This document shows, one piece after another, positions 10,601 through 35,272 of a stretch of DNA of 64,000 bases. Source of the stretch: Lytechinus pictus. Lineage: Eukaryota. A program made the position numbers and the translations under genes. Below the pieces are notes generated by a model, which was not told the DNA's origin, did no database searches, and worked only from the letters and a program-made list of their open reading frames with translations. The first letter of the stretch is position 1; each line of letters begins with the position of its first letter. The DNA lies in the NCBI RefSeq assembly GCF_037042905.1, contig NC_087251.1, positions 3,598,001-3,662,000 on the forward strand, given 5' to 3'.

Positions 10601-13600
10601 CTCTACTGTTAAACATTCATGTCACAACTTTCTTTCCATAGATAAACCATAACTTTAAACCAGAGTTTGAATTAAATCCGAATTTAGAATACAGGTCTAC
10701 GTGTTTAAGTAATTATTTCTTCACACAATGTAACATTTTCTAGGACATTTTTGTCTTACTCCATAAAGCCAGTAATTTCTCAGCTGTATAGAATGTTTCA
10801 TTATCCATCACTTGTGAATTGCAATCCCTTCCCAGCCCCTGAACTCATACGTAGAGCATAGTGGGCAAACAAGTCACTTCTATGTTAAACTCTGTTGCTG
10901 TCACTTCCCCTTCAAAAAGTTTGTTCAGTACCTTATATAGAATGCCATGGGAGTCATGCCAAAAAGGTATGGATGTAATATATTAGGCCTGATTAAATTA
11001 AGTTACGAAGTTTCCTTTTCATGACAGAATAATCCCTATATCAAGTGTACGTGATAGACCTCATGTGAGCTATGGTGATAGAAAATGTTGGCATTTAACC
11101 TGATAATGATAGATTTATTTTTTTATTCAAAAATTGCAGAAGTAAATCCTAATCTACATTCTATTTCTAAGAAACAAATGTATTAATGTTAATTGATCAA
11201 CTTTTAGTAGGACTTCTCTTTTCAACTTTATATAATTGGATTTACATTCATTCTGCTACTTTTATAAAGTTCATGATGTTTCAAAGGTACTATAAAGTCA
11301 TTGTGGTCATCAATATGCGATTTTAGTTTTGTGATGATGTGTTTATATGATTGATTGAATGATGATATTAAAAAATTGTAATGGATGCAGATCTTTTCTT
11401 TCTCATTTCTCTGAAAATAAACGTGATTCAAATGATTTTTAGATGAGTAAATAACATGTCAGAAATGCCTGCCAGTCATAACTATCATGAGCATTTACAA
11501 TGTATATTCAATTTATTTTTTCCATATGATCTTTTTGCTGGATATGCTAGTCCTGGAAAAAGATGATATAAAATTAAAAAGACATCAGTTAAGAACTTCA
11601 TAAAATATGAAAACTGTAATTCTATATGAAAACAAATCAAGTTCTTGGCAACAGCATGGATCACCATCATTGGAATGCAAAATTTCCAATTTATGATTAG
11701 TTCAATATCAGATATGCTGTCTGTATTTTTTATTAAATGACATTAAAGTGCGGAATCATGAGTGTGTATATTACCATCTCAACAACTGATCATTTACACT
11801 TTTTATTGCAATGTCAGTTAAATATGGACTTGAATTTTTCACCCACCAATTACACTGCTTTTGATACCTGCAACAATTTATACTTCTGAAAATATACTTA
11901 TCACATGTGATTTTTCACTTGTGTTATATTGCAAATTATGATATTTTGTTAAAACACTAGGTAATGGTTCCATTTTAAAAATCAGTCATGTATTTGTGAA
12001 TTTGCCTTGAATGAATTTGTCAAGGCAAACTTTCTTGTGGCCCGTTGTATGAGAAATCAGTGTACTCAATTCATCAACTTTGCTACTGACATCAAAGAAA
12101 GTAGCTATATAAAATAGAAAATACATATAACATCACAATGTTATTTGTAAGCCATTTTTATAAGACTGATCGAGTATAAGTTCTGCTTAAAATTTATCTT
12201 AAATACAAAATGTAGCAGTGGAAGCAAATGAGCATGTACAAACCTCTCTCCCCTCAATTCTTTTCCCCTTTCCATAAAAAAAGGAAGTTATGATACTCTT
12301 TCCTATTAACAAAAGATCAAAATTTATGCCTACTTGATGGCTTAGGGTGATAGCATGGTGATAGAGATCAACATAAGTAATTATGAGACATGTGATTTGG
12401 ATGAGTAACATTCAGAACTAGAGTATTATGTTTCTTGTATTTCTCTTAGACAGGATATTGACATCCTCACACTCAGTAACTCATATCAAACTGACGAAGG
12501 AAACTATATAAAGTTATGTGAAAAACTAGTTACAAAAAAAATATATATATGTATTTTTTAATGAATTAATGAATAATGATATTCATGGTGATGATAGAGA
12601 TGATGGTGATGGTGATGACATAATGATAACAATAATTATGAAAATATATGCCAGACCTGCTTTTGATTTCAAGTTTAGCCATTTTAATTTGTCAATAGCA
12701 AGAAAGAAATTGATTATTCTAAATTGCTAATGGAAATGATTGAAAATGACAATGACAAACTTACTCCTTACAAAGTTTTTTCACAGCTTTTTATGTGAAT
12801 GAAAATAATAAAAAAGTAAAAACATATTTTGATTACTGATACAAAAGAAGTGTTTTTTAAGATATTTTTTTGAAAACTCCAAAGATGGGAGAAGACATTA
12901 CTATACTTTTGTTTTGTTTTCCATAGTGTGTACTCAACTACTGATGTCCCCTAGACCTCATGAGGAAACGATAACACAGTACTTGCAGCTTCTGGACAAG
13001 TGCTATAACCATGAGGCTTTCACATCAGCTCAGAAGAGCAAGCTTTTATCATGGAGAAAGAATTGCCAAAAATTCAGTCCCAACCCATACGCCAGAAAGT
13101 CATCCATTGATAGCAAGCAGACAAGAGGGTAAGGATCAATACAGCAATTTAAAGGGGATGCATATTTATGAAAGGTTGACAAAAATCCATCAAGAAACAT
13201 TATTTATTTCATGATTTTTTTTAAAGATTTAGTTCTGTAAAGTCACCTCCAAACTGCATTGCACGCTGTACAATATACAATGAACTCCAGAAACTTGCTT
13301 TTTCAGAAACAAAATTATTTTTACTTGTACTTTATGTAATTACACATATTTCATACATGCTTACATGAAAATACAAAATTTATTCTTTCATCATAGACTG
13401 TTGAAATATGGCAGTTTGCAAAATTAATGATGCATTGTATATGCTGGAAAGGCTCTCAAGTGACAACAGAATTAAACTAATATAAACTAAAAAAAAAAAA
13501 AAAAAAAAACATGGTTCTAATTATTTACCCTTGATGGATTTTTATCAAACCTTCATTGCTATTTTTTTATTGCCTTTTAAAGACTTACTTAAGATTAGGG

Positions 13601-16600
13601 TGAAAATTTCCTTTATTACTATATGGATGCTTTTTGTTTTTGAATTAAATCCCAGGGAGGCATATTTTATGAGTAGATTGTGAAAAGGCATTTTTGTTAA
13701 ACTTTCTCCCTTAAGGATGTCAGATGGTTTAGTCTTCATGTACTTTTTTGTATTCATATTTAGTTGAAAGGAGGCTCCTATTTTGTGTTTCATATCCTCA
13801 AAAGTATTGACATCTTTGGTTATTATTTGTTATTCATCTCTATCAGAATACCCAGGTACCTGACTTTTCATAAACAAATGATTTACAAAGGATTAGAGGT
13901 TTGCAAGGCAAATGGAGTGGGAAAGATAAGATTTATGCTGATTTGCATACAAAACCAATTTGTAGCTTCATGGGGTAGTGGAGTGTGTGCCAGGTTGCAT
14001 TAACTAGGATTTCAATGCGGTCCCTTTTTCACCGAATATATTATTTTCTAATTGAACAATTACGTAGAAGCTATCTTTAAAAAGCCTACCCATCAAAAGG
14101 TGGTGTATTTAGCCATCAATCATACGAGTTGATCTCTAATTCTATGTTATTCATTGGATATTGTCTGTTACGAGAATATTGCTTACATACTTTACATGGA
14201 TGTGCACCATAAGTTCATCAGAATTAAGTCAGCAGGAACTCCTTATCTACATGTATCTATATAAACAGTAAAGTGATTGATTCTACTTATTGAAATTAAA
14301 TATTGAGTCATATTATTAAGAAGCAGATGTGAAAGAAAAAGACATTGGGTTGTTTTTTCATAGCAGTGGTTTAGTTAACCTTTGTTACTTTAGACGATAT
14401 TTAATAGAGTGCATGTAAAAAGTAAGTCATTAATGGTCAAGTCCACCCTAACAAAAAAGTTCATTTGAATAAATAGAGGAAAATCAAACAATCATAGGAC
14501 TGAAAATTTGATTAAAATTGAACTTTAAAAAATTTTAACTTATTTTCACACATGATTTGTGATATGCAAATTAAAGAGCTGGTGTCTCTCACTATTTGTG
14601 TTGTAAAAGTGTAAATATGAATTATTAAAAAATATTTCAATTTTTGCAGATTTTATAACAAAGAAACTTTAAATTATTAAATCACAATAAGTTTGACAAT
14701 GAAAATTCTAAACATTCAAATGATGAAACTAGACCATATATGATATACCAATTGATTTCATGGATGGTTTGTTACAGGTGGAGTCATTATTCAGGAGCAT
14801 TCAATGAGCATGGTGTTGGTAATACAGGTGTATCAGTAGGGGGTAGAAGACCAGTGAGTAGGCAACCATTTGGGGGTATGTCACAGCCCCATCTCAACCC
14901 TCTATTATCTATGAGTAGCTTGGGTAGCCCTAGTCAGGCATACAGGCAATCACCTGGTAGTAACATGTACCTTCACAGACAGGTGAGTCCATCCTATTTA
15001 TTATTAGTACACTGTTTACATCACAGTTGTTCAATTCTAAATAATCAATATTTTATTTGTCAGCTAAATTAGAAGGCAATAAATTAGAATTTTAAGAACT
15101 ATTATTTATTTTCCGATGACTTCTGAATGTTTCTAATTATTTCAAAAACTTTGCTGTAAGTAATTTGATGAGTTATCCCCTCTTTCCTCCCATTCTCAGT
15201 TACCCTTCCCCTAAAGTAGTCAGCACATTATGAGTGGTAGGGTTGAGGTTGATAATTGGGTCAATCATTAAACCAGAGAATTGCAAAATGATATTTTCAA
15301 GAAAACTGTCTCACATGCCCCCTGTGAGGGTAATAAAAAGAGGGAGTAATGTCACATGCACTCTACCATCATGTGACAATCAACCCGCCATTTTACAGGA
15401 TCTCTTTCATCGCTAATGTGGAAGTGAAAATTACTAATACCCAGTATTATGTGAATCATCTTCCTCCCTATACAAGTTTTTTTTTTCTCTATCTCTTCTC
15501 TCTTGCTCTCTCTCTCTTTAACTCTCTCTCTCTCTTTCCCGATCTGTATGTGAACTTGTCAGAACCGTCTGTTCTAGTTTACACCTCTGTGGTATGAAGG
15601 CTTTCAGCTGCTTGTGATATAAGTTCAAAGGCTGTCTGTCACTCATCCATTATTTTATCTCTGTCACACATTGTTCACGCTTGCATTTAAAGAAATAGCT
15701 CTCTTTCTTGTGGGGAGATTCACAAAGTTATGTTACATAAATCCAAATCTGTTCATCTGATTGAATAGCTTTACTAATTTAACTAACATGACTGTAGGCT
15801 GGTGACTAAATGAAATCCCAGGTACCCAAGTCCCGCCCAAGAGCTTCAGAAAATATAGCCTTTTTGCAAATATTGTATGGATTACTATGCATTCATGTCA
15901 CAAGGTGGGGCAGTTATGGCACACCCTGAAGACCAGTGGGTTATGATGGGGATTCCTTCCTGCTCCTGTGATCTAACAATAATTAGCTGGACCTAATCAT
16001 GCCAGACGGTCAGGTCTCACAATACATTATACATACAAAATATACATAAAAGGCAATGGAAGTTGAACGGAATGAGCTTTAAGTAAATGGCAATGGATAT
16101 TAGACAAAATCAGCTTTGAATTTTGATGAGAAATTGATATTCTTGAATAATTATTAAAGATGCCTATTCTGTATTAAAAGTTTCTGAATCATTCAACAAT
16201 TAGTCCTGCAATAACTTTTTTTTGTTTTCCTAATAAATAATGTATTTCTTGACCCCTCCCACGCCCCCCCCCCCCTCCCCCGAAAAAAAAAATGATCATG
16301 ATGCACATGAGTATGTTGCTGTAAGGAAAAGTTAGGTCAAGTTTTTCTCAAATTAACTACCAGACTAATGGAATTTGATATCAGACATGATTAAAATGCT
16401 GTAATGGGATAAGTTTCTACATCTTTGATATTTCAAAATTCTTGCTGTACATATGCATATGAATAATATTTGACGAGGTAGAGAAGGGCTTTGTAGATTT
16501 GACTTTATGAATATAATAAATATGCAAGGTATATTTAATAGTGTGGTGGTTATATGTGGATAAATTTGGTCATAGGCCTACATTTATTTAATGATAAAAT

Positions 16601-19600
16601 CAACATTATTCACTTTGGGGATTGACCAAACATGCCTCTGGAAAGAAAATGGCTTATTGAGAAAAAAATGAACCTACTTTGTAACCTCCTATATTATACG
16701 TACATATATATGCACATAACTGCATTAGCACCTATTTTAGAATAGTAAAAAAGTACATCATGATTATTCCTATTTGTACAAGTTTGTTTGATTTTGCTCT
16801 AAGTGACCTTGTGCCAAAGTGAAACTTGTACTTTTATAACATGAATTTTTCCACATTTTTTTATCGGTTCAACCAAAATTTTGAGATATTTCAAGTAACA
16901 CTATTGTAGTTGGGAAAGTACTTTTTTCTGTTAACACACCCTCAAAATGGCCTTGTAATATTTCACATACAGTTTACCTCTGCTAAGTACATCATTTGTC
17001 ATCTGAAATATGAAAAAAGAAATACTGATGATTTCCCTTTAAGTTGTGATAGAGAACTCGTGAGCAGCCACCCAGTGAGAATAGACAGGAAATGCACAGG
17101 GAACATGTGGAGACTAGAAAATGTGAAGTCTCATTAAATCATTATATTGAATATGATTTATTTCAAAGATAAGTGCAGTAGACTCATGAGTGGGAGAGAA
17201 AGTGAGAGAGATGGGGGGGGGGCTCAAAGTTTAATAGGAGGAAAGATGAAATTGCTGTATGACTGGGACGAGATTGAAAAAGAGAAACTATTTAGGATAT
17301 TTATGTAGAGAATACATGCATTTATGTCATGACAATTGTCTTTAATTGTGAATTACAATGTAGAAGCATAAAATGTATTTTGTTGTATTCTCAGCATAAA
17401 CAATGAAGACAAAGCTTTGATAAAATATGTAGTGTATATTTCATCATTTTTTGCATACTGATATGCCTAACATGCTGGAGAAATTTGAGCTTTGACTTGA
17501 AACTATAGTTTGTATTGATGTTAGACTTGTTTTTTTTTTTCGATGACATTTTGTATTTTTCTATGAATATAAAAAAGTTTGTTTTCTAATTGTATTGTAT
17601 AGTCTCTTGGAGGAAACCCTCATTCCATGGTACAGAGGACAAAATCAGCCCCTAACCACCGACGTTCATCGCAACCAGCCCCGCCCACCTACTCACCACA
17701 ACATCCACCCTTAACCAGGGTAGAAACACCTCTTCACTCCCTGGGGGAACCAGACATCACAGATAGATTAGAGATGCTGTGTAGGAGTGTGACGGAGCAT
17801 GCATTAGGTCAGGATACAGTCCCCCTTCTAATTTTAGATTTACTGTAAGGAAGGCCTCATGCATATATGTGTTAATCTCATAATGTGACTGTGTCTGTCT
17901 GGGTTTGTCTTTGCCGCAGGCTTTGACTTTATTATTTTTTTCAGTCAGTTCATTCTAAAATATGCAAAATTTTATAGGTAACCCTGTTGGATACTGTTTA
18001 TATTTTGACTAACAGTTCATTCCATCTGGATTCACCCAGTGGTTGCACCCAACCCTCTCAGTTTTTGTTATAATTTGGTACACATAAAATTCTCCATGGC
18101 CCAAGCACAAAACAAAAAAAAATTAGTCCAATCGGTCAGTCGGTTCTCGCGCTACGGCCCGCCCTTTTCTCCTTGTTTTGACAAAAATGGGTGTGACCTT
18201 CAACTTTCAATGGCCATTGCGTCGTAACGTGTTGACCAATTTTCACGAAACTGGTACTATTCAAAAGGAAATTCAGAGAGGAATCCAAAACATGCATCAA
18301 ATAATGTATTGGAGCGATTTATAAGGTCATGACCTTTGACCTTGAGTTTGACCCCCGGACAAATAATTTTTGAACTTGATTTTCGTGTATGTTAATTATT
18401 AGGTTGATATTGACAAAATATGTTAAAACCAATGATGATATTTTATTCCTTCACCTTTTAAAACTCTTCCAAAGATACCAATTATCTGATCTGAAATTTC
18501 ACTCTAGTCCCATATACTGATAACCATGTTAGTAAAGTGTTTACCAGTCCCATGATATATGATTTCTTCCAATCTTAAGTTACAGTATGCAAACAGATGA
18601 AAAGAAATTAAGCTTATCAGTTGATAAATGAAACATTAAACATTTATGCTTATGAATACATGTAGGTACCTGTTTAGGCATTTTGATATTGGACGAATAT
18701 ATAAAAACTAAAAAACTGCTGGGAACTGCAATATCCTGCTTTCTAGTCAGCTGTACTCCCCCAAAGTGAAAACACCCTTGAGATCCTTGAAGCATCAGCA
18801 TTGGATATGTTCTTTATAATGATGATGCTAGAGATGGATGATCAATTGGACAGATAATATTGTATCTAGCTATCCAGCAGGTATCCTTTTCACTGCCTCC
18901 CCATTGAAAAAAGACAGTATCTAAATATTGCACAAGTTGAGATATTAAGCATTTTTTGTTTTTCCAAAGCTGCTCAAAACTATTTTATTTCTTAGTATTT
19001 TTTTATCATCAAATTGTTGAGTATATATGTTCCTATTTAAGGCTCCCAAAACAAATATCTTGTTTCTTTTTTTTTATAGATATTGAAGAGATGTACCGTA
19101 GATAGGCCTACTCTGGGAAAGTCAAAGCGAATGCTTGGTTTCTCCATGGAAAAACGCAGTACATGTATCTACAGATGGACCAGAATTCCATTCAGTTTTA
19201 TTATCACTTGCTTCATTACCATGAAATAATGTGTCATTGTGTATTTCAAGGGGAAAATAATACCTTAGATACACAGAGGGCCCCCTGATAACATTGAGTT
19301 TAATTATCATGTTCTTCATCTGTGGGTACTGCATTTTTCCATGGGAAACTGAGTATTTGCTTTTCTACATTTACACCAATATCTCAAAACATAACAACAC
19401 AATTTATATGGGGGGTTTTGGCCTGAAAAAGGCATTCTACATTTTGATGAAAAAGGAATAGAGAAATAAAATAGTATGGAGCGACTACATGTAGTAAAAA
19501 AAAAAAATGCTTAATATCTTATCTTGTGCAAAATGTAGAAACTGCATTTTGCCGATTACTTGAAAGTTGCTTTTCAGAAGCAATTAGGAAAACTGGATGT

Positions 19601-22600
19601 GTCTTGTGAAAAAAAGTGGCTTACTGACTACTTTCTGAAAAAATAAAAATTGAAAAAAAAAAGTCAGACACTGCGTTCTTCCATAGGGGTGCAGTGTAAA
19701 GATGGATAAATGTACCTGCTGGATAGTTAGAAACAATATTATCTCTCCAGTCGATCATCCATCTCTAACATCATCAAGAATGTATGATGCTTCAAGGATC
19801 TGAAGGATGTATCCACTTTGGGGGAGTACAGCTTACTAGAAAGCAGGATATTGCAGTTTTCTAATAATGAGTTGATATACACTACTCAAAAAAAGTTAAG
19901 GACCACTTTTTAAAACGTACATAAAGATTTTATACAAGGTGTTTTATTTCTGGAAATACCTCAGTACAACTGTCCTAAATGTCCTTAAACACGCTGTAAT
20001 CAATTTCACGCATGGGTGGTTTCAGTTGTTGCACAATGTCTCTCGCATCACTGCACATCCTGAAAAGTGGGCCCCGAGGGGTATCAGCTACCGACATGAA
20101 GTGGTAAAAACGAATGTCTGAGTGTCTTTCAGGCAGTTCAGTAACGAGTGTAACGAGTGTGACCACCTCCTGCAGCAATAACGGCTTCACAGCGCTGTCT
20201 CATGGAGCTGATGAGGCGATTGATGTCTCTGACGTCCAGTGCATCCCATGCAGCCTCCAGAGCCACACCCAGCTGCTGCAGTCCAAGTGGATGGGCTTCG
20301 AGCTGCTCGAGACTCCTCCCCATCATGTCCCAGACGTGCTCTATCGGGTTTAAGTCCGGGGACCTCGCTGGCCACTCCATACGCTCAATCCCCTGGCCCT
20401 CAAGGAACTCGGTCACCACCCTAGCTCGGTGGGCACGGGCATTGTCATCCATGAAAATGATGTTTTGTCCCACATTTTCTGCAAATGGCACCACTATAGG
20501 TTCAAGGACCTCATCCCTGTACCTCACTCCTGTCATTGCTCCCCCTGGGACCACGTAGAGACGAGTACGGTTGGCGTAGGTGATGCCTCCCCACACCATG
20601 ACGCTGCCTCCCCCATAACGGTCATGTTCTGCAATACAGGGGTCTGCAAATCTCTCTCCTGGTTGCCTCCAGACTCTCGAACGTCCATCATTGTGGTCAA
20701 GGGAAAATCTGCTCTCATCTGTGAACAGAACTCTACGCCATTGCTGTCTGGTCCATCTGACATGCTCCCGGGCCCAGTTGAGACGAATTCTTCTGTGAGC
20801 AGGGGTGAGTGGGACACACTGAGCTGGCCGTCTGGCATGCATATTGGCTCTGTGAAGTCGGTTACGGATTGTTTGAGTGGAAACAATCACTCCAGTTGCT
20901 GCAGCGAAGTCATTGTTGAGGCGGCGTGCACTGTGAAAGCGGTTGCGGAGGCTGAGATTCGTCAAGTAGCGATCATCTCTAGGGGTTGTCGAAACTGGTC
21001 GGCCACTGCGGGGTCTCTCGGAGTATAGCCCTGTCTCTCGGTGTCTTTGATTTGCTCTGCTAATGACACTGTGTGACACGCCCATCATTCTGGCTACTCT
21101 TCGCTGACTGAGGCCAGCTCCAGCATCCCTAGGGCTCTGGCTACATCTGTTTCACCCGAATATGGCTGTCTTGAATCTCCTCAAACACCCTGTAACAATT
21201 TCACACATGGGTGGTTTCAGTTGTTGCATGATGTCTCTCGCATTATTGCATATCCTGAAAAGTGGGCCCATTGTGAAGTGGTACAAATGTGGATTCAAAT
21301 GCATTTTCTGTCTTTAGTCTCTACAATCAACAAATTGCTGACAACAGCAATGCCAAGATACAGCTGTCCAGAATGCCATCAAACACAATGACATCAATTT
21401 CACACATGCAGTTCTTTCATGATGTCTCTGGCATCATTGCAGTGGGCCATAAGACAAGTGTCTTCCAAAGCATTTTCCGTCTTAAGTCTGTACAATCAAC
21501 AACTTGCCTACAACAGCAATGCCAAGACACCACCTAAGTGAAACAGATGTAGCCAGAGCCCTAGGGATGCTGGAAGCTGGCCTCAGTCAGCGAAGAGTAG
21601 CCAGAATGATGGGCGTGTCACACAGTGTCATTAGCAGAGCAAATCAAAGACACCGAGAGACAGGGCTATACTCCGAGAGACCCCGCAGTGGCCGACCAGT
21701 TTCGACAACCCCTAGAGATGATCGCTACTTGACGAATCTCAGCCTCCGCAACCGCTTTCACAGTGCACGCCGCCTCAACAATGACTTCGCTGCAGCAACT
21801 GGAGTGATTGTTTCCACTCAAACAATCCGTAACCGACTTCACAGAGCCAATATGCATGCCAGACGGCCAGCTCAGTGTGTCCCACTCACCCCTGCTCACA
21901 GAAGAATTCGTCTCAACTGGGCCCGGGAGCATGTCAGATGGACCAGACAGCAATGGCGTAGAGTTCTGTTCACAGATGAGAGCAGATTTTCCCTTGACCA
22001 CAATGATGGACGTTCGAGAGTCTGGAGGCGACCAGGAGAGAGATTTGCAGACCCCTGTATTGCAGAACATGACCGTTATGGGGGAGGCAGCGTCATGGTG
22101 TGGGGAGGCATCACCTACGCCAACCGTACTCGTCTCTACGTGGTCCCAGGGGGAGCAATGACAGGAGTGAGGTACAGGGATGAGGTCCTTGAACCTATAG
22201 TGGTGCCATTTGCAGAAAATGTGGGACAAAACATCATTTTCATGGATGACAATGCCCGTGCCCACCGAGCTAGGGTGGTGACCGAGTTCCTTGAGGGCCA
22301 GGGGATTGAGCGTATGGAGTGGCCAGCGAGGTCCCCGGACTTAAACCCGATAGAGCACGTCTGGGACATGATGGGGAGGAGTCTCGAGCAGCTCGAAGCC
22401 CATCCACTTGGACTGCAGCAGCTGGGTGTGGCTCTGGAGGCTGCATGGGATGCACTGGACGTCAGAGACATCAATCGCCTCATCAGCTCCATGAGACAGC
22501 GCTGTGAAGCCGTTATTGCTGCAGGAGGTGGTCACACTCGTTACACTCGTTACTGAACTGCCTGAAAGACACTCAGACATTCGTTTTTACCACTTCATGT

Positions 22601-24299
22601 CGGTAGCTGATACCCCTCGGGGCCCACTTTTCAGGATGTGCAGTGATGCGAGAGACATTGTGCAACAACTGAAACCACCCATGCGTGAAATTGATTACAG
22701 CGTGTTTAAGGACATTTAGGACAGTTGTACTGAGGTATTTCCAGAAATAAAACACCTTGTATAAAATCTTTATGTACGTTTTAAAAAGTGGTCCTTAACT
22801 TTTTTTGAGTAGTGTATATTGCCCAACATCAAAATGCCAAAACAGATACCTATTCATGAGCATAAATGTTCAATGTTTCATTTGTTAACCGATGAGCTTA
22901 ATTTCTTAACATCTGTTTGCATACTGTAACTTAAGATTGGAAGAAATCATGTATCATTGGACTGGTAAACACTTTACTAACATGAATATCAGTATTTGGG
23001 ACTAAAGTGAAATTTCAGATCAGATAATTGGTATTTTTGGAAGAGTTTTAAAAGGTGAAGGAATAAAATATCATCATTGGTTTTAACATATTTTGTCAAT
23101 ATCATACTAATAATTAACATACACGAAAATCAAGTTAAAAAATTATTTGTCCGGGGGTCAAACTCAAGGTCAAAGTAAAGGTCAAAGGTCATGACCTTAT
23201 AAATTGCCCCAATACATTATTTGATGCTTGTTTTGGATTCCTCTCTGATTTTCCTTATGAATGGTACCAGTTTCGTGAAAATTGGTCAACAAGTTACGAC
23301 GCAATGGCCATTGAAAGTTGAAGGTCATGCCCATTTTTGTCAAAACAAGGAGAAAAGGGCAGGCCGTAGCGCGAGAACCGATGGACCGATTGGACTAATT
23401 TTTTTGTTTTGTGCTTGGGCCATGGGGAATTTTATGTGTACCAAATTACAACAAATTCTGAGAGGGTCGGTGCAAAATTGCACATTCATTGGGTGAATTG
23501 GCATGGAATGACCCTAACATAGAATGCTACTATTTTTGGCATATTCCAATCAACTATCATTAAATATGTCTGTTTTAATACTGTGTAAATATTATTCAGT
23601 TTCTAATTATATATTGCTTGAAATGTTCCTCATTGAGTAGTACCTGTTGATATAAAACAATTTATTTCTTTGAGATGAAGAAATGTGTTTTAGAGAAATT
23701 CTTGGACCTTTTTAAAACAAAATGAATAAATACATATTCTTGTGTGATTCAGAGAAATGATAAAATTAAAAAAATTTGTATATTTTCACAATGTGAAACT
23801 GATGCATATTTCATTTAATTCATTATATATGTATTTATATTTTATTTAAAATATGTATGTTGTGAAAAGGTATGATTGCCTCAATATTCAGTCTTTACTT
23901 TTCAAGATACTGATATTTTCCAAATCCAATTCCCTCTTTTTCAGAAGAAACTGTACCACTTGGAGAAGAAATCGATGTCTGAAAAAGTATAGATGAATAT
24001 CAATGATTTAGCATTTGGGGTGATTTGTTCATGTTTATTGATAATAAGTTCATGCTCTTTGGGACTAAATAAAGACTGCTTCATATCCGCCACTAAAAGG
24101 TTAAGGGAAATTGAATAAATCATCATCAGAGAATAAGAGGCATAATGTTCTTGTGATCACTTGGCTCTCTGAAAGCATTTACATGGATGTGCAACATTCA
24201 TCAATTCCATGTTATTTCATTGTCATTTTTCATTCTTTCACATTCTTGATCTTTTGTACAGATGAAGCAGATCACAATGGAGAAATATCAAGACATTGA
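4067..24299 (+). CDS. SAMD4: Smaug homolog (SAMD4A/B family; SAM + PHAT RNA-binding translational repressor), 5'-partial. join(4067-4630,5260-5319,6487-6596,7136-7222,8233-8488,12927-13128,14778-14982,17603-17807,24262-24299)
   Basis: All introns are GT-AG and the frame is continuous (1727 nt, phase-1 start). Motifs match SAMD4/Smaug: [104 protein letters not shown]. The first coding exon was not found in the window. Confidence 0.95.
4657..4802. mobile_element. Small GC-rich palindromic MITE-like element with internal subrepeats
   Basis: CACCTTCCCGCACAAAGGCCGTT is inverted against AACGGCCTTTGTGCAGGAAAGCG; two forward and two reverse subunits. Confidence 0.7.
5260..5319 (+). CDS. SAMD4: Smaug exon ([12 protein letters not shown])
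   Basis: tttcag|AAG...AAAG|gtgagc; 60 bp, in frame. Confidence 0.9.
6487..6596 (+). CDS. SAMD4: Smaug exon, SAM domain first half
   Basis: [41 protein letters not shown] bounded. Confidence 0.97.
6625..6836. repeat. Degenerate (ATC/GAT)n microsatellite
   Basis: Runs of GAT and CAT triplets. Confidence 0.85.
7136..7222 (+). CDS. SAMD4: Smaug exon, SAM domain second half
   Basis: [33 protein letters not shown] bounded. Confidence 0.97.
8233..8488 (+). CDS. SAMD4: Smaug exon (PHAT region start)
   Basis: DIMSTG...[13 protein letters not shown]; ctacag| ... |gtaagt. Confidence 0.93.
9989..10194. mobile_element. Degenerate MITE with internal telomere-like TAACCC units
   Basis: Imperfect inverted ends (GGTTCCATGACATCTGTTCTGGCGACAATT / AATTATCACAGGAGCAAAGGTTGTGTCACC); internal CTAACCCTAACCCT. 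Confidence 0.5.
10415..10697. mobile_element. MITE, imperfect TIRs
   Basis: AACCCATATTCTAAAGTTGGGTTTAA is inverted against TTAAATCCGAATTTAGAATACAGGTC. Confidence 0.55.
12927..13128 (+). CDS. SAMD4: Smaug exon (PHAT region)
   Basis: [46 protein letters not shown] bounded. Confidence 0.95.
14430..14700 (+). repeat. Dispersed non-autonomous DNA-transposon fragment (same family as 46833-47035)
   Basis: Both sites share GGTCAAGTCCACC...TTTGAAT.AATAG...AAAATCA.ACAA...CTGAAAATTT. Confidence 0.6.
14778..14982 (+). CDS. SAMD4: Smaug exon (low-complexity S/G/P/Q region)
   Basis: ttacag|G TGG AGT...CAG|gtgagt; phases match both neighbours. Confidence 0.85.
17603..17807 (+). CDS. SAMD4: Smaug exon (conserved C-terminal motif)
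   Basis: VQRTKSAP...[18 protein letters not shown]. Confidence 0.92.
20138..21155 (-). pseudogene. Inverted, 5'-truncated, frameshifted copy of the Tc1 transposase
   Basis: Matches the + copy except loss of the first ~6 codons, a 1-bp deletion near 21120 and one R->Q change. A 316-aa ORF from an internal Met remains. Confidence 0.9.
21519..22556 (+). CDS. Tc1 transposase, DD34E, 345 aa, apparently intact
   Basis: N-terminal HTH, RSGRP linker, [38 protein letters not shown]; 34 residues between D and E. Confidence 0.97.
   Translation: MPRHHLSETDVARALGMLEAGLSQRRVARMMGVSHSVISRANQRHRETGLYSERPRSGRPVSTTPRDDRYLTNLSLRNRFHSARRLNNDFAAATGVIVSTQTIRNRLHRANMHARRPAQCVPLTPAHRRIRLNWAREHVRWTRQQWRRVLFTDESRFSLDHNDGRSRVWRRPGERFADPCIAEHDRYGGGSVMVWGGITYANRTRLYVVPGGAMTGVRYRDEVLEPIVVPFAENVGQNIIFMDDNARAHRARVVTEFLEGQGIERMEWPARSPDLNPIEHVWDMMGRSLEQLEAHPLGLQQLGVALEAAWDALDVRDINRLISSMRQRCEAVIAAGGGHTRYTRY
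24262..24299 (+). CDS. SAMD4: Probable terminal Smaug coding exon ([12 protein letters not shown])
   Basis: Pyrimidine tract + tacag acceptor; phase matches GCA TTA G|gtcagg. Vertebrate SAMD4 also has a short tail after EHAL. Confidence 0.7.
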
Positions 24300-26068
24300 C
24301 ATCACTACCCTCCCATGAAGAAACAGACAAAATGATGGGATGTTATGGGCATACTAATGATAAAATAAAGACTGATTCATCCCAGTGGCTACCAGAACTC
24401 AAAGTAACCACCTATTTGGTCTGGACAACTGTGATTCTCTATGATGACACCAAGTAGCAGCTTCATCTCTGCACCATGAAGACAATTAGCTAAACTAGAT
24501 CACACTCTAGTTTGAACAGAAGAGTAGTTTCTAAGGAAGAAAAAGACATGTTTTTGGTTGCAGTATTACTTTGTTTAGCAACATGCAGCTGTGTGGGTTA
24601 GGTGCATGGATGATGACGATGATGATGTATATTGTAGGGTTATTATTTCATGCTGTCTTTGTTCACTTCTTGATAATAAGTGATGTGTCAGAGAAACTAA
24701 GAGGATAGTCTCTTATGAAGAATCCTATCAGGCATCTGTAGTATTTTGTGTTTACTACGCTATAAAATCAACTCCTGTAGTTAGAATGAGGTGAATAACT
24801 ACCAGTTGTCCATGATATTGTGCCATGCCAAAGTATAAGACTCTGCAGAGGATATGCACAAGATGTAAGTGATGTCATGCAAAATATGCTGAAATCAGTT
24901 TGTAGGAAGTGACATGGCTTAGTATGTTCAATTTTTTTTCAGAGCTATTCATAGTTTAGAAAGTAGTAAAGTTGATACACTTATTGGTCACTCTTTGCCA
25001 ACACAGCCAGTAATGATTTGTGGACCAAACAAGATTGCATTATTTCTTGTGTTACACTGCAATCATAGGCAACAGGATTTTGACAAAGTCAAGCACCCAG
25101 CACAAGACAATACACATGAATAAATGTGCAGTATACCACAATCAAATATCTTGGCTTTGAGATATTTTCACTAATTTGGGCCTATTATTCACAGTTTGTT
25201 ATATTTTCCACATCCAACAATGGTAATATGCATAAGAGGAAAACTTAGCAAGGTTGGATTCACAAAATCAGCGAAAATAAAACCAGCATGACATTTTGGT
25301 TTTTACATTGGTTGAGTATTGACTCATTAGATGTGTTCTGTATTGGCAAATGTTCTTATCATTCATAAGTCACTTTTTACTCTGCACAGTGACTGAAGAA
25401 AGAGGACTGTTGATATTGAACTGAACACTACACTAAAAATCAAACTATCAATCACATCACCATGTCAATTGTTGATTATATTCATTCAGCACATTTCTAC
25501 CCTATTGGAATTAGAGTATGTGGTGCTATGTAAAGATCAGGGTAGTCTAAAACTCTTCAAGCAAATAATGATCATGACAATATAGCAAATTTAGTGTGCT
25601 TACATTACACTTAAGAGTGACACCTTATAATGACTGCATTCAGGAATCCATGTAGATGAAATCCAAAATTCAGTATTACTTTGCTAGTGACTTTCAATAT
25701 ATACTTTGGGGTAAGGTAGGCCTCTCATAGTGTAACAACCACAATCTCAAGCCCCAACTTGAGACAACTAGACCTTTGATGCCCTCATTTGCGACGAATG
25801 GGTCATTTATAGGGGAAGGCGGGGTAAGTTGAGCATAGGGGCAAGTTGAGCCACCACCCCCAGGCTAATAATGAATGAGTCAGACATTGTGGTGGTGTCA
25901 TGTATTGATGACCCATTGCATAACCCTTAACCCCACCACATTGTTTTCAACTTTGAAACAAAAAGTACTTTTTTAGAGGGAAAAATAAAAATTTCAGCCA
26001 AAAAAGTAAAAAATGGGGTGAAATAGATAAGTGCTTTTTAAAGTAAAAGTAAAAAAGGGTGTGAAATA

Positions 26069-26310
26069 GATCCAATCAATCGCAACTATGGACGGCCAGC
26101 AATGTCAACAACTATTATGCATGTTTTTTCACAATATTTTCTAGCTATGATGTATATTAATGCATTCATTGTTTTATTGAAAATTCACTGTACTTCTTTT
26201 TGCATACAAAGGACACTGCAAACGTTTCATAGAAAAAATTATGACACTGATGGATTTCCATAGAGTTACGATTGATCGGATCAATTGTAACTCTTTGTAA
26301 GACGGGGCCC
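26069..26310. mobile_element. Nested Harbinger-like MITE, left end truncated
   Basis: GATCCAATCAATCGCAACT is inverted against AGTTACGATTGATCGGATC; ends GTAAGACGGGGCCC, similar to 35789-35897. Confidence 0.6.
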
Positions 26311-26750
26311 AGGTATGGATTCTCATTCTTGTCATAGTCTTTTACATGATGGATGCATAAGAAATGTGTGGATGTGAAAATATCGCAAAAAGTTCGGACT
26401 GGGGTAATTTAAGCCAACCAACATGGGGCAAGTTGAGCCATGGTAATTCTTATGGTAATGTATAATAAAAAAAAAAACAACGTAAAAAGCCATTGATATG
26501 CAGACAGAAAGGAGCAAATTCACATGACAGTTCTTTTACTTTTAGAAGATGTTAGTATTTATAGAGAATTAGCAAGTGAAAAGACTTTAAATGAAAAATT
26601 GACATCCTGGTTCTTCCCGCCTACATTTTGTACATAGTTTTTGTGGCTCAACTTACCCCGGACGGTGGCACAAGTTACCCCACAGATGGGGCAAGTTGAG
26701 CCATTTGACATAGTTTTTTTCAAAGGTCACGATGACTTTCAGTGTGGGCG

Positions 26751-27144
26751 TAGCCTATCTGATATCCGCCGGGCTATAGTGGGCAAGTTACTGGTCGCGC
26801 GAAGCAGACTGACGGGCGAGGGCGAAGCCCGAGCGCCTATCATCACTGGTAAAGTCATCAATATGCATATATGGTTATCATATGCGTGACATACTTTTAT
26901 TATGCATCATTCATGAGATAACCCTTATATGGCGATCAACTGTATTTCTTAACCAATCAAATATCGCAGTCTACCTCACGTTCAAGCCTCGTCACTTATT
27001 GGTCCGTGTTCGCGGACAGTTATGAATATTTATATTGAAGCTTAGTTGGGGGTTCGTAGAATTTCTACGAATGGAACAAGGTAAATAACCAGTGGTGATA
27101 GGCGCTCGGGCTGCCCACTAGCCCGACGCATATCGGATAGGCTA
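26751..27144. mobile_element. Nested 394-bp TIR element with 9-bp target duplication
   Basis: TAGCCTATCTGATATCCGCCGGGCTA / TAGCCCGACGCATATCGGATAGGCTA; flanks GTGTGGGCG and GTGTGGGGG. Confidence 0.85.
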
Positions 27145-28074
27145 GTGTGGGGGTAGAAAGTTATATATAGGTGAAAAATATTTCCCAAGAATCAAATTTA
27201 AAGACAAGGTACTTATTTCTACAATATTACTAGTCATATCAATTCTAACATGGAAAATGCAAAAAGTGTCACAACTTACCCCGCCTTCCGCTATAGGTCT
27301 CTATTATACTCTGGACTATGTTAGTATTTTCTTGTGTAGATAAAGTGAGTTATATTGTTTTTCCCTGAGTAGAACAAACTGATATTCATTCAAGATATGT
27401 TTTTCTTCTTTTAATAAATCTAAAGTCTGAAAGGTATGTGACTTGATATATTTGGAGAAGCGGGTTATTCTCAGTTGATTTGATTTTATTTTTGGATAAG
27501 AACAAGACAAAGAGGTATTCCATTTGAAATATGCGATTTCAAATATGTATGTACATAAATATATATGAATATATATAAGATGCTGACATCAGCATCACAT
27601 TTATTGTCTGATGTTTTTATATTTTTTTGCCAGTGCATGAAATGAAAAAAGATTTCCATTGCATGTGGTGTTAATTACATATTTTTTTTAGAAGAAAAAA
27701 GTATAGGAAATGCATTCAATTTTCATAGTGGTTCTTTTTTTTTCAAATCTTCAATTTATTCTCATATCTTCTAGTTGAAAAATGTAAGACTGTCATATAT
27801 AATGGTGTCATAATTGGGAAGTAGGCATAATATAAAGTTATTTTCTCTTGGTGTCCACATAGTTATTCTTGAAACTGCTTCACAAAATCTGTTATCAGTG
27901 ATCCATCTAGGCACTGAATGGATGTATTGATAGACCTATTTATCGGACTCAGGTTTACGCATCTTTCACTCCCTGGGGAGTAATGCAGCAAGCTAAGGCA
28001 CTGTCAATGCTTAGCAAATCTGCTATATGAATACATGTGAATGAGTTTTATTGATCACTGGAACCATCATGTTG

Positions 28075-28325
28075 TGTGGATGCATCACAATGATTCTGAC
28101 CCTTGTCTTTCAAGAAGAGGGTTCTGGATTCAAATCCTCTTCCAGGCATTCATTTCTTTTTTGCAAGAATTAATTCAGTATGCTACACTCAACAGAGGTG
28201 AAATGAATGGATACTAATATGGATACTTGTATGGCATCTCAGCTACAGCCTGGGTACATCATGGCGATACTGGCTGAAAGTTGCTTCACTATGTGAATGG
28301 ACAATATATTATTGTCACTATAAAG
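28075..28325 (+). mobile_element. Highly degenerate tRNA-derived SINE
   Basis: B-box-like GGATTCAAATCC followed by CACTCAAC.GAGGTGAAATGAATGGATAC and a simple-repeat tail. Confidence 0.35.
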
Positions 28326-31300
28326 ATGGTGATGAGGATGATGGTGATGAACAGCATTTTTATAGCACCATTTATCTGTAAAAAAAAACATTCTAAGGCA
28401 TCATTGATACTTTGCATGATTGTCACTATAAAGATTCATCAGATAATCTTGTTTCAAATTCCGAAATTGTTTATGGCGAAGATCAAAGAAATATAACCAA
28501 AATGTTATGTTTCAAAGTAAAAATTTATAAAACCCTTGATGAGTTTAAGTAAATGTGAAAGCTGAATGCATTTCCTTTTGATTTGTATGCTTCTATCCCC
28601 CCTTTTTTTTTTTTATTAATATGAGTATTTTATACTTAAAACCACAAACTAGTTCATGTTTTAAAAGCCACACATGGAGATCTCTTTGAATATTGTGAAT
28701 GTCAATGTTTTGGGTTTTTTTTTGCTTTATCATTACATTAAATTCAGTTGACAGCCAAAGTAACATAGTTAGCAGTGGTTACTCATTATACTGGATGATA
28801 AAAATAGTGTTTAAAACAAGTCTCAAGAAGGGGAGAGAAATTAATCATCAAGTACACATGCACAGCTTAAAAAGTTTAAATCTGAATATTAAGAAGTCAT
28901 TATTTTGTAAATCACTGCTATATTTGACATAGAAACATATTTTTTACAGAGAGATATTATGTGGTGGTTTTTTTAACAGAACCATTGATTTTTATTTAAC
29001 AATTTATATTGTTACTGATTTCAGCCAATGAAAGAGAAGTTGTATGGTGTGTGGTCAAAGGAGTTGTTATATTCTATATTTCTTTTGAAAAAAAAGTGCT
29101 ATTTTGGAGAGAGAAATTTCTTTAAGTATTGATATGATATATATGACATAAAATGTGTATAGACAATGCATGTATATGTAGAGCATATGCTTACAGAAAA
29201 TGCTGGAAAACCCAAACTGGTTTGAGTTGCATTTTTTTTATTAGATTGATGATAAAAGTACAAAATCTATGTGAATTTTTTGAAGATTATTGTGTTCGGT
29301 CATGTAGCATGAATTTCATCAGCTGACATTCACTTGTCAGGATCACAATACAAATGTTTTGCTACAAGATTTTATCCTAGAAATTATATTTTTTCTGTGA
29401 AATCAAAACCAAACGATGGCATTTTTTTCTAATATACAATCTGCTGGTTACAGTTATGCTTGAAGCATAGGCTGTCAGAAGATGCCATATGATACAAGCT
29501 GTTTGACACAGCAAACAATGTCTTCAAAACTCAAACTGGTATTAAAATATGATTATTTTTGTGGAGTATGTGATAATTGTATGTTTATTATTTTGTTTGG
29601 GTGACCAAATAATGTTGAACATTATCTGGATAATTTTCATGTTTTTAGGAGAGGGGTAAAGCAAAAGTAAGGAAATCACTCCTGAAATGACAAAAACAAA
29701 TAATGTAGTGAATATGAAAGTGAATTGAAAATAAAAATGACTTAGAAATAGAGCAACTATATGTTAATCATTTTGGTACAATTGATATGATTAGGCCTTA
29801 AAATATATGATTTATGGAAAACAAAGTTTGTTGGTAAAAGAAATTCAGTCAAAGTACATTACATTCATCAGAACAATGACCAGCATATGAATGAACACTA
29901 TCCTTCATTTGCAGAATCTTGACACTTCATCCTAGAATATTTCATCAAAATATAATCATTTTTATATCAAATTTTGTGCTTGTTACTCCACCAGTGTAAG
30001 TATATTTTATAAGGTGCTTGGCAAAATAGCCATGAATTCCTTTTTTGTGTTTTAATGGAAGAGCCCATGATGATGTATTATCAATATTTCATGGTCAGCA
30101 GTTCAAAGTTTCTGGTTATGTGATGTGTTGTTGGAAGGTTGACTAATTCTTTAAGTTATTTAAAATGAAAATGCACTTCATTGAATTCATGTCTGGTTTT
30201 ATTGGTTTTCATACGATTTATTTTCCATCAATACTTCATTCTGATATGCTAGTATGTATTTTGTATGAATAGAATTTTGCTTCATGACAATAATAATGTA
30301 CTGGATCATCAAAATGCATTACTTTCATGACTTTGATGTATTAAAGGAAAATATGAAATCAAGTTATTGCCCAAATAAACAGTTTTGAAAACAACGTTGA
30401 TAGAATTGATGTAAAATAGGTAAATGCCTATTTTGTAATTGAGGATATTTCAAATATCTTATTAAAACATTTCCCGTCCATATATTGTTTGTTTTACATG
30501 TATTCTAAATGGTATTTCTATGACATGACCTTCAGATTGTATACTGGCTTGATTCTCCCATTATGATGCTTTATGTACACGTATACTGGGAAAGAAAATT
30601 ATTAAAAATTGTTTAATTTATAATCTCTGTCTTACGTCATATGTTAATGTTATGTTTATGTTTTCCTTTTTAGTATTGACACATTTGTTTTCTTAACAAA
30701 TAATGTCCCATTATTGATTTTCCTTGCCCTCTTCTTTTCTGATTATCTCCATTCTATTGAAGTTTCACAAAGGTCATGTAAATGAAATAGATAGCATGCC
30801 CATCTGTTGCTAGGTGATTCTTTTATAATCAAGGAAATTCACATTGCTGTAATTTTATTTTAGCCACTTGAAGATATTCAAATTAGAAAGCAACTTTTGG
30901 ATTTATCTTTAAGGACATACAAGAAATCAATAAGTGTAATTGACTAACTTTTGTATGTAGTTTTCTATAGACTTACACACACTAACAATTCAAAATTGTT
31001 TTCTACGTTAAGATCCAATAAAAACTGATAAAGAAGTGTGAAGGCCCAATATTATTGTTTAATTCAATCAAACAAGACTCTTTTCTAAATTAGGCTTCAT
31101 ACATGTAAGCAGAAGTCTGAGTGACACTTGAGTAGCTGAAATGGATGTAATGATATGTGATTCTTCCAAGAAGAAAGAAAAGGGGTTGTATGTACGATGA
31201 GATGAAATTGTTATCAAGTACTGCACTGGTATCTCTGTCTTCTGGTAGTTTCTTGCACTTCATACACATCTTACATTATTACAGTTGGTAATTTTCCCCT

Positions 31301-33180
31301 CTGCAGACCGAAACATGATTTTATGTCTTTACTTGCATTTCTACCTTTCATTCTTACACATCATCCATGCTGAGTGCTATGCTTTATACTGTATATCTTG
31401 GTATAGTGACACAAGTCTATATGACTGATGCTGCTCAGTAATAATTTTTTTGCTACTAAAGTTGACAAAAAATTGATGGATATACAGTGTTTCCTGAGGA
31501 TCACTCAACAATTTAAGTTTTGTTTTGGATGTAAAGTTTGAATTTAAGTTGTAGGTGTAACTTGCTTAAACATGTGGCAGTCTACTTGCATTAGTCAAAA
31601 TCTGTTGTTGTTTTTTTTCTTAGATGTTAAATGCAGAAGTAGCGGAGTTGCTCTCATTGCATGTTTTGTCCATATAAGTTGTACCTTGTCATAATTTAAA
31701 TTATTCAGCGAGTCCCTGTAGCTTCATCTTGTGTATGGCTGTTGGTAATATCAAGTCATACTTGCATGTTTACAGCATAATTATGTATCAGGCATGATTG
31801 TAATTACTGGATAAGTTAAAATTGAACCTTCAATAAAAATGAAAATATTTCCTTTAATGTATTGATTGCCATGGTAATGTTCAATACGTATGTGAAATAT
31901 ATCATTAATATCCGTATGGGCTTATCTGATATTGCATGATTATATAGCTGAAGGTGTAAAGTTGTTTGGCATAAGCCACTGCAGAATTTGATTGGTTCAT
32001 TATCAATTTGTAGTTAAATACATGAAAAATCAATTTCTGCTTCTACTGTATAATTACACATTTGCAAGTCAGGTGCGTATTTACAATTCCCTTAATCTCT
32101 AATTTCTAATTGTTTCCTCAGTAAATTTCATAGGTAGCCTATACATATTTGCATGCCTTGTATGTATATTATGTCATCAAGTGTTAAAGGCATTCAGAAT
32201 GCTGTGTACACTTTGAATTTATCCAAATATTGTGAAAACAATGACCATTTTATCCTAAAAGGATTTATTTTGGTTCTAATTGTTTACAAACACTAACAGA
32301 GATATACAAATTTGTGAAAACTTCAATTTGGTAGCAGGCGTCTGGTCATAGAATTTAATACAAGAGAAATCGTCAGTAAAATTAATAAATTTTTTTATTT
32401 GTAATAGGCCCGACATTAAACAATTATATAATATATTCATATTTCACAACTTACACAAGGTAAATCTTATGACTTCAGTACCACATTCTGCACCCTATCC
32501 ACTTCACAAAATAAGTCAGTAACATTTTTAATGGGAGGGTATCATAAATAAATTCTGGAATTGTTTTTCTTTTTTTCTATTCTTTTATTTCTTGTAATTT
32601 TCTTGTATTTTCCCTAAAGTACAAAGAGATAAAAAGGTATATTAAGATGATAATTGCATGATTGGTGCACATGCATGTGATATAATGTAGATATTCAACA
32701 TGTCATGCTGCTTCTGTTCATTATTGAATTGAAATGATTTCTATGCCATGTGGATACAGGTGGATCCATATTAATAAAAACACATCACTATAAAATTATT
32801 GTTTCTATACACTTTTTAATGTTGTCAGGGAATACTAATGACAAAGACTAATGATGAGATTTTGTCAAGACAAAAAAATTGTGTTTGCTGTAACTCGACC
32901 GCCCCTTATCAAACCTGCCTAAATTTGTTAATTCCAATCCCCCCCCCCCCCAAGAAAGTGTGCTGACCAACCTTTAATTTGATTGTTATGCCTATTTTTT
33001 TTTTAAATAGCAAATGGCAGGGTAGAACACATGATATGAGAAGGGAAAAAACCAACTGACCGACCTATTAAGTTTGAAAGTACATAGTTTCATTTTACCA
33101 TACACTCTGAATCAAGTCTATTTTGCCTTGTGAGATTTTCACCTATAATTACAGTGGCTTTCAGTACATTTTTCTCTTAA

Positions 33181-34846: not shown

Positions 34847-35272
34847 TCATCTAAATCCAAACAATTCATTCAACCTCTCATTCATATTCCATAGTCTGGT
34901 TTTCCAGTCATTTCCTCTATCATCTAAATCTGATGAACGTTCATCCCCATCATTATCCGTGTTTCCGGTCCCGTCGAGTCTAAAATGGCTACTGATAACT
35001 CCTCTACACATTGGGCAGGCATTGAGGATTTCCAAGCACATCTGACACACGCACGCATGCCGACAGGGTATGATGACCCGTGTGATAGAAGCATTCTGGC
35101 AAACAATACAGTTCCTACTGACATCACCAAAGCTATCTCTACTCGTAGAATCTGATGAAGATACATGTTCACTAAATAGTATGCTATGATTATCATCACC
35201 CAAAGATGGTTCCTCGTCAACACTCACTCTTTCGTTGTGAAAGCTGGTCTCATCTGCAGCCATGTACATTTT
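34847..35272 (-). CDS. CGRRF1: CGRRF1 last exon, RING finger
   Basis: C3HC4-type RING; acceptor tgtag|AAA ATG. Confidence 0.93.
   Translation of the reverse strand, partial: KMYMAADETSFHNERVSVDEEPSLGDDNHSILFSEHVSSSDSTSRDSFGDVSRNCIVCQNASITRVIIPCRHACVCQMCLEILNACPMCRGVISSHFRLDGTGNTDNDGDERSSDLDDRGNDWKTRLWNMNERLNELFGFR

Follow-up and report, generated by a model that had tools for sequence, protein, structure and literature searches.

In the Rpmar17 and Rpmar49 mariner lineages of Rhodnius prolixus, the element's 5' part has been replaced by an inverted copy of the 3' part (PMC4678618). Goblin, a MITE (miniature inverted-repeat transposable element) derived from the Tc1/mariner element Ozma of Aedes aegypti, has subterminal regions that come from the right end and a junction in inverted orientation with microhomology, and its origin has been proposed to lie in template switching during gap repair after excision (PMC3814204). 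Here we describe an element that shares these features of Goblin, a palindromic Tc1-like transposon in the last intron of a Smaug/SAMD4-like gene of Lytechinus pictus, within a 64,000-nt stretch of contig NC_087251.1 (positions 3,598,001 to 3,662,000; hereafter the window). It is very likely a real germline derivative of a young Tc1-like DD34E family, formed by inverted duplication so that it carries two right ends, mobile, and a selfish by-product of that family.

The R. prolixus lineages resemble the window element in their exceptionally long terminal inverted repeats (TIRs) with homology to the transposase (PMC4678618). The 227 rearranged copies of Rpmar17 have variable breakpoints, as do the many copies and junctions reported below, and the 13 copies of Rpmar49 were amplified by transposition, as were lineages with two right ends here (PMC4678618). 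They differ in being mariner elements, mostly of less than 1 kb, deleted and non-autonomous (PMC4678618), whereas those described here are Tc1-like DD34E elements with arms of up to 1.29 kb, a full open reading frame (ORF) in 22 of 35 and two ORFs in one lineage of 27 copies. In the portions of that account used here, a link to double-stranded RNA (dsRNA) or silencing is not drawn (PMC4678618). Goblin in turn is miniature and non-coding (PMC3814204), unlike the present element with nearly the whole gene in both arms.

Another precedent is Mu killer of maize, which like the window element arose naturally, repeats part of a transposase gene in inverted orientation and has one terminal repeat in two copies (PMC3440606; PMC1563492, PMC2563033), and of which transcription from a flanking gene would likewise yield a long hairpin RNA (PMC3440606). 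However, Mu killer is a single immobile Mutator locus in a plant, with small interfering RNAs (siRNAs) and heritable silencing demonstrated (PMC3440606), whereas the elements here are mobile, multicopy and in an animal, and the likeness is structural only. As to the ends, in vitro Mos1 substrates with two right ends (RR) transpose 26-fold better than the natural left and right pair (LR), and those with two left ends (LL) 50-fold worse (PMC4505599). Sleeping Beauty 'sandwich' vectors, built with two inverted complete pairs of ends, are mobilised as a unit, as the palindrome is here (PMC5715130). Both the RR substrates of Mos1 and the sandwich vectors are engineered, whereas the RR bias reported here is natural and is gauged from counts only. 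The foldback-like transposon Galileo, a member of the P superfamily, has long TIRs that consist of internal repeats and are not copies of its transposase gene. With the window element it shares TIRs of kilobase length and structural dynamism (PMC4168063, PMC3573991). In the literature outside subscription journals we found no report of transposase-bearing RR Tc1 elements with kilobase arms, the closest reports being the shorter mariner and MITE cases.

Structure of the palindromic element

All coordinates are window positions unless stated otherwise. The palindrome is a TA-flanked element of 2,935 bp (19880-22814), whose arms, 19880-21155 (1,276 bp) and 21538-22814 (1,277 bp), are reverse complements of each other. 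When the element is compared with itself using BLAST, the arms align over 1,277 columns at 99.84% identity, a single mismatch and a single gap being the only differences. The left arm has a 1-bp deletion near 21119, and the substitution changes R to Q in the left-arm copy of the transposase (VWRQPGERF versus VWRRPGERF in the right arm). A near-perfect inverted repeat of 1.28 kb cannot arise by chance. An earlier account made from the letters of the window (the sequence-only reading) had described this element, its arms, a 382-bp spacer and two differences between the arms, all of which the self-comparison reproduces, with TA on both sides. That account also took both outer termini for copies of the right end, and they are indeed such copies, since the left end of canonical family members is only 83.6% identical to the right end over 195 bp. 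The window copy is a canonical element of which the first 78 bp have been exchanged for an inverted copy of its own last 1,276 bp, and canonical copies align to the window from 21154 onward only. Folding the element as RNA (RNAfold) predicts pairing of 1,276 of the 1,276 left-arm bases with the right arm, with a minimum free energy of -2888 kcal/mol. The features of the element are listed below.

19878..19879, unstranded: left copy of the TA target-site duplication, from the sequence; six of nine paralogues of the host repeat have the two flanks side by side, with exactly 2 nt in common
19880..21155, minus strand: left arm, the inverted last 1,276 bp, from the right terminus inward to about transposase codon 7; two private differences from the right arm
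20138..21151, minus strand: truncated and frameshifted transposase copy without a start; the longest ORF that begins with ATG has 316 amino acids (aa) on translation
20143..20160, minus strand: mirror copy of the lineage-specific 9-bp tandem duplication; the pattern has 4 genome matches, which are the 4 arms of two loci
21154..21156, unstranded: rearrangement junction (21155/21156), inverted ORF codon ~7 joined to canonical nt 79 with a 2-nt (AC) microhomology; a 39-mer across it has 2 matches in 812 Mb
21156..21537, plus strand: 382-bp spacer, canonical nt 79 to ~460, comprising the inner left TIR and two tandem 5' units, with a private A at 21484; from comparison with canonical copies
21519..22556, plus strand: intact 345-aa Tc1-like DD34E transposase ORF, the canonical 342 aa plus the TRY duplication; from translation and Pfam
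21538..22814, plus strand: right arm, with zero private differences from the lineage ancestor; from arm comparison
22534..22551, plus strand: lineage-specific 9-bp tandem duplication, ACACTCGTT twice; from arm comparison and genome pattern count
22557..22814, plus strand: right end, comprising the 3' untranslated region (UTR) and right TIR; from the sequence and the right-end 47-mer
22815..22816, unstranded: right copy of the TA target-site duplication; from the sequence and paralogous empty sites

Transposase and canonical family copies

The protein encoded on the right arm matches the Pfam families HTH_Tnp_Tc3_2 (7.8e-19) and DDE_3 (3.2e-19). The catalytic triad is D153, D244 and E279, in which 34 residues separate the second D from the E, and the closest solved structure is the catalytic domain of SB100X (2.8e-28). 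The 9-bp duplication repeats TRY at the C-terminus. By contrast with this intact ORF, the copy on the left arm begins at about codon 7 and is therefore without a start, besides being frameshifted; translation, Pfam matches and catalytic residues thus agree with the sequence-only reading, which had placed an intact DD34E ORF on the right arm and an antisense copy lacking a start on the left. Close protein relatives in public assemblies have 99% and 89% identity, the next ones at most 59%, and the named homologues are Tc1-like, Tcb1 and Tcb2. The DDE domain with its 34-residue spacing and the N-terminal paired-like helix-turn-helix are those of Tc1-like DD34E transposases, and the TA target-site duplication is that of Tc1/mariner elements. 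Such elements have short TIRs of tens to a few hundred bp and a single ORF, as do the canonical copies of the family (195-bp TIRs with 83.6% identity). The arms of the window copy have 1,276 bp and include the ORF, and it is therefore a rearranged derivative and not a canonical member.

Canonical copies are 1,730 bp long, or ~1,896 bp where a third 5' tandem unit is present, and are TA-flanked with unlike left and right ends, of which the outer 34 nt are identical. The 342-aa ORF is intact in 17 of the 28 canonical loci examined. These copies are 98-99% alike, and the family is young and probably active. The 5' region of the family consists of tandem units of ~165-190 bp, each containing a piece resembling the inner TIR and a motif resembling a start codon. 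The number of these units varies (2, 3 or more; loci L020-L030, L026), with 2 in the window copy and 3 in its sister copy on C1.

A second locus and integration as a unit

The 39-mer spanning the rearrangement junction has two matches in the 812-Mb assembly, one in the window and the other at C1:26478143-26478181. The C1 element is 3,094 bp long and TA-flanked, and its flanks, in which we saw no obvious coding exon, are unrelated to those of the window copy. It has one extra 5' unit and an intact 345-aa ORF, and its arms differ at 7 sites and by an 8-bp deletion. The 9-bp duplication is common to all 4 arms of the two elements and absent from 25 of 25 canonical copies, and its pattern has exactly 4 matches genome-wide. 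All remaining differences among the 4 arms compared are private to single arms. The shared junction and the 9-bp marker in 4 arms therefore place both loci in descent from one rearranged element, both arms of which stem from a single source copy.

The window copy lies in the right arm of a foldback-like host repeat (here termed R; see the last section). In 6 of 9 other copies of R compared with it, the sequences on either side of the Tc1 element adjoin each other and have just the 2-nt TA in common, while in the remaining 3 the left-flank alignment ends short of the insertion site. The contiguous flanks with a 2-nt TA overlap mean that the palindrome was inserted as one unit with TA duplication. 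The suggestion, made from the sequence at the outset, that the palindrome could be a mobile unit is thereby upheld, since the palindromic form recurs at another TA site with unrelated flanks, the TA duplication is clean when set against paralogous empty sites, and other RR lineages occur at 27 and 12 loci.

Genome-wide census of elements with two right ends

A 47-mer of the right terminus has 421 matches in the whole assembly, against 126 for a 47-mer of the left terminus. Among the first 100 of the 421 right ends listed, 68 form 34 facing pairs at a distance of 1.5-3.1 kb, while no facing pair was found among 100 of the 126 left ends listed. Besides the C1 copy, 33 of these pairs were retrieved and their structures scored against the three-unit canonical copy; with the window and C1 copies, they make up a sample of 35 elements. 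All 33 retrieved pairs (33/33) are TA-flanked. Thirty are simple fusions of a reverse complement (x..end) to (y..end), one has the class-A junction but has lost additional internal sequence, and the other two are complex. The sample of 35 contains 19 simple junction classes, of which 15 are singletons; the joins have overlaps of 0-11 nt or else fillers (1, 5 or 31 nt). The classes with more than one element, with their junctions (x, y), are as follows.

Class A: junction (605, 283), 9 elements in the 35-element sample
Class B: junction (1106, 243/408), 4 elements in the sample
Class E: junction (694, 565), 3 elements in the sample
Class S, that of the window copy: junction (628, 79), 2 elements in the sample

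Genome-wide, the class A junction is present at 27 loci and that of class B at 12. Arm lengths in the sample range from 110 to 1,291 bp, an ORF of 342 or 345 aa is kept in 22 of the elements, and class A has an ORF on each arm, of 342 and 360 aa. Provided that each left end is paired with one right end, the genome holds roughly 150 RR elements ((421-126)/2), about as many as there are canonical copies, so that about half of the family's copies have the RR architecture. The window element is thus not singular, as it had seemed when seen by itself. As in the replacement of 5' by 3' parts described for mariner, both termini are right ends and the breakpoints vary over many copies, and some lineages were amplified by transposition, single junctions occurring at 27, 12 and 2 loci.

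Origin of the palindrome

Given that the window element is one of roughly 150 RR elements with many independent junctions, we regard it as a selfish by-product of family activity and not as a dedicated host device. It consists of two left-truncated copies of one source element joined head to head, one half inverted and reaching from the right terminus to about ORF codon 7, the other direct and reaching from nt 79 to the right terminus, with a 2-nt microhomology at the join. Its most likely cause would be that an element was broken or gapped on its left side and repaired by end joining, or by template switching using sister or same-copy sequence, as has been suggested for other derivatives of Tc1/mariner elements. 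The microhomologies, the fillers and the exclusive presence of right ends fit such left-side repair, the model put forward for the Goblin MITE (PMC3814204). The family transposase accepts two right ends, so that the palindrome moves as a unit, with the enzyme coming from its own intact ORF or from the numerous canonical copies that are intact; units with two right ends would, once repaired, be mobilised preferentially. The lineage marked by the 9-bp duplication in every arm has two copies, of which that in the window was inserted, with TA duplication, into the right arm of the foldback-like repeat in the last intron of the Smaug/SAMD4-like gene.

The arms themselves hold some information on their sources. 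A G/C site that varies among canonical copies has one and the same allele on the two arms of any given RR element, C in classes B, K, P and Q and G in the other classes, which argues for at least two source subtypes and for the derivation of both arms of each element from one copy. Variants private to a single element are present on both of its arms in three cases (three variants in L078, a 4-bp insertion in L076 and one variant in L075), and show that the arms of RR elements interact by gene conversion. The 2 arm differences of the window copy are still unhomogenised.

Some points weigh against the origin proposed above. Its mechanism is deduced from the breakpoints, and recurrent formation is inseparable from a few unseen head-to-head dimers diversified by central deletions. 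The preference of the family transposase for right ends is likewise deduced, from end counts, and the terminal 34 nt of both ends are identical, so any such preference must be subterminal. The structure of the window copy is read from the assembly sequence, the census from the first 100 of 421 right-end and 100 of 126 left-end matches, and the figure of ~150 presupposes the pairing of every left end with one right end. Moreover, either copy of the lineage, or neither, may be the site of origin.

An alternative departs from our explanation only in how the structure arose, and supposes that one or a few complete head-to-head dimers with abutting left ends moved by means of their outer right ends and that all junction classes, that of the window copy included, are later deletions at the unstable centre of the palindrome. 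A model of essentially this form has been put forward for Rpmar17 and Rpmar49 (PMC4678618). Each class could formally be derived from a full dimer by a single central deletion, and the gene conversion between arms in L078, L076 and L075 is in line with such a history. However, no abutting pair occurs among the 100 left ends listed, the classes L(874,3), S(628,79), A(605,283), C(590,652), K(917,57) and P(815,405) are not derivable from one another, and the two alleles at the polymorphic site, each of which is also found in canonical copies, point to at least two sources. We hold a dimeric ancestry to be possible but doubtful.

The palindrome is hardly at all likely to be an assembly fold-back. 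Palindromic chimeras are a known artefact of long reads, and one such read could mimic an inverted duplication of a single Tc1 copy. It would not account for the same junction and 9-bp marker at a second locus with private mutations of its own and an extra 5' unit, for the 33 further TA-flanked RR elements and the identical junctions at 27 and 12 loci, or for the 2 sites at which the arms of the window copy differ. An origin in situ from two independent canonical insertions, placed head to head and followed by local deletion of their left parts, is of similarly negligible probability. A single deletion between inverted neighbours would yield the observed structure, but the 9-bp duplication is on both arms and in no canonical copy, the flanks are contiguous in paralogous repeats with an overlap of only the 2-nt TA, which points to one unit and leaves no second site, and the identical junction is found elsewhere in the genome. 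The second junction locus, the marker with its 4 matches and the contiguous empty sites thus contradict it.

Transcription over the element and the silencing question

Three stranded runs depleted of ribosomal RNA and one contig set, all under the same species label, were mapped on 14500-34499, with ~6% of each run read. Reads across the Smaug splice junctions have their first mate on the minus strand, and RNA from the plus strand is accordingly that with the first mate on minus. Over the spacer and the right arm, reads with the first mate on plus reach 16-38x against 0-2.5x in the other direction, and the left arm is the mirror image (6-22x against 0-2x), so that more than 90% of the family RNA is antisense to the transposase (three runs; 21170-22503 and its mirror, 19836-21169). 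Reads on the arms stem from the whole family, the same antisense reads falling on both arms in mirror image, and an excess of A-to-G or T-to-C over the arms is confounded with differences between copies. The private A at 21484, which only the window copy has (1 of 28 copies), permits a distinction. All 156 RNA reads at this position (156/156) carry T, no plus-strand reads were seen there, and an X1 contig is without the 9-bp duplication; the RNA seen therefore comes from other copies. In 667-bp bins, antisense depth is down to ~2x in the bin with the terminal 311 bp, which suggests that the antisense RNA starts inside the element near the stop codon and is not read in from the flanks; the right end behaves as if it held an inward-facing promoter. 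At the ~6% of each run that was read, Smaug exon bins have a depth of 0.4-1.9x, too shallow to reveal intron RNA. In runs of other organisms (B-E) and in echinoderm and marine metatranscriptomes, 0.07-0.19 of the window's sampled words are present, about the share of the Tc1 element.

In animals, hairpin-RNA (endo-siRNA) loci are known in which a long inverted repeat gives rise to Dicer-dependent RNAs of ~21 nt. A transcript crossing the window element, Smaug pre-mRNA included, would carry a 1.28-kb transposase hairpin, and the element is an inverted duplication of transposase sequence, as a locus of the Mu killer type should be. The sequence-only reading accordingly pictured a mobile unit that carries its own silencer, in which read-through from the Smaug promoter yields the hairpin RNA, which is diced into small RNAs that silence the family in trans. 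The position inside a spliced, transcribed intron and the predicted full fold are in favour of this idea, as are the precedents of Mu killer, in which part of a transposase gene is duplicated in inverted orientation and presumably transcribed from a flanking gene (PMC3440606), and of Ac/Ds, in which inverted duplications from alternative transposition have been reported to start silencing (10.1101/2020.01.07.897926). The low sense transposase RNA (0-2.5x against 16-38x antisense) would also fit a silenced family. However, zero reads can be assigned to the window copy, in view of the T at 21484 and the lack of plus-strand reads there, and the fall of antisense depth to ~2x over the terminal ~311 bp points to starts within the element and not to read-in from the host. 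Furthermore, the genome contains roughly 150 copies able to form a hairpin, yet RR lineages have gone on to 27 and 12 loci and many ORFs are intact, which speaks against a strong, immediate shutdown like that by Mu killer. The same intron already has a 900-bp, 93% inverted repeat of another family, R, that is common genome-wide, and long intronic hairpins are therefore ordinary here. A silencer of the Mu killer type is, on this evidence, unlikely.

A broader conjecture, which we consider quite improbable, is that the family continually spawns mobile, transposase-bearing RR palindromes and that its right end drives inward antisense transcription. Every RR copy would then be a source of dsRNA by convergent or read-through transcription, and a self-generated, transposable analogue of Mu killer would set a ceiling on copy number in the animal germline, with the copy in the Smaug intron delivering the trigger maternally.

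Implications

The type of rearrangement is already published for mariner (PMC4678618) and, in miniature form, for Goblin (PMC3814204). New are its occurrence in a Tc1-like DD34E family, the kilobase arms with nearly the whole gene, the potential autonomy of most elements, the two ORFs in a 27-copy lineage and the stark asymmetry between RR and LL forms. A single odd element thereby widens into a pattern across the genome, in a Tc1-like family that is young and probably active and in which RR forms arise with many junctions and still transpose while LL forms were not seen (among 100 of 126 left ends listed). This is a counterpart in nature to the preference for ends that mariner transposases show in vitro. 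The pattern also shows a route by which autonomous elements give birth to long-TIR or foldback-like elements and to MITEs. With dozens of marked, hairpin-forming transposase copies, some of them in expressed genes, the family offers a usable test of silencing by inverted transposon duplications in an animal. For annotation, it follows that such palindromic copies should not be dismissed as assembly fold-backs.

Host gene, host repeat and neighbouring features

The SAM exon of the host gene matches Pfam SAM_1, with Drosophila Smaug as the best solved structure (1OXJ, 7.6e-8) and a further match to yeast Vts1. None of the other Smaug exon translations matched Pfam, and the exon at 12833-13132 had no match when its sequence was compared with PDB. 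A SAMD4 C-terminal motif was not found downstream of 17800, and the last exon was obtained from RNA joints. These joints, 14980 to 17601 and 17805 to 24260, have GT..AG ends, and the latter is seen in 3 reads of run X22, 1 read of X23 and one contig of X1 that runs on to 25837. The location of the palindrome in the last Smaug intron, first predicted from the sequence, is confirmed by this joint, and the transcripts do not end before ~18000 but are spliced to the exon at 24262. The features of this region are listed below.

17603..17807, plus strand: penultimate coding exon of the Smaug/SAMD4-like gene; RNA joints
17808..24261, plus strand: last intron, 6,454 nt, which holds R and the Tc1 palindrome; RNA joint
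24262..25837, plus strand: last exon, with 12 codons, the stop at 24297-24299 and a 3' UTR at least to 25837; RNA joint and contig
18017..23513, unstranded: foldback-like host repeat R, left arm ~18043-18963, right arm 19496-19879 and 22815-23477, split by the Tc1 palindrome; inverted-repeat and genome comparison

The arms of R are ~900 bp long and ~93% complementary, with a spacer of ~530 bp. Its two-arm architecture is recurrent, with 279 first-look candidates and adjacent inverted arm matches on C14, C5, C9, C7, C20, C10, C2, C3 and C1. Two X1 contigs (depth 48.9) pass straight from 18042 to 23478, where 6 letters are shared, and so skip R entirely; this joint may represent an allele without R or another copy of a larger repeat.

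Further downstream, 34847-35272 (minus strand) is a C3HC4 RING-finger exon of a neighbouring gene (Pfam zf-C3HC4_3, 2.1e-10). On the same strand, an open frame at 38868-39185 has a GIY-YIG-like motif (KVYIGE...), of the kind found in Penelope-type elements, and gave no Pfam match at E <= 0.01. Hundreds of RNA reads join 16258-16281 to 33917-33939, or end there in long runs of C, and RNA depth is very high at 25839-26505 and 33176-34499, in the thousands in X1. These joins and regions of high depth are probably highly expressed repeats with homopolymer tracts.

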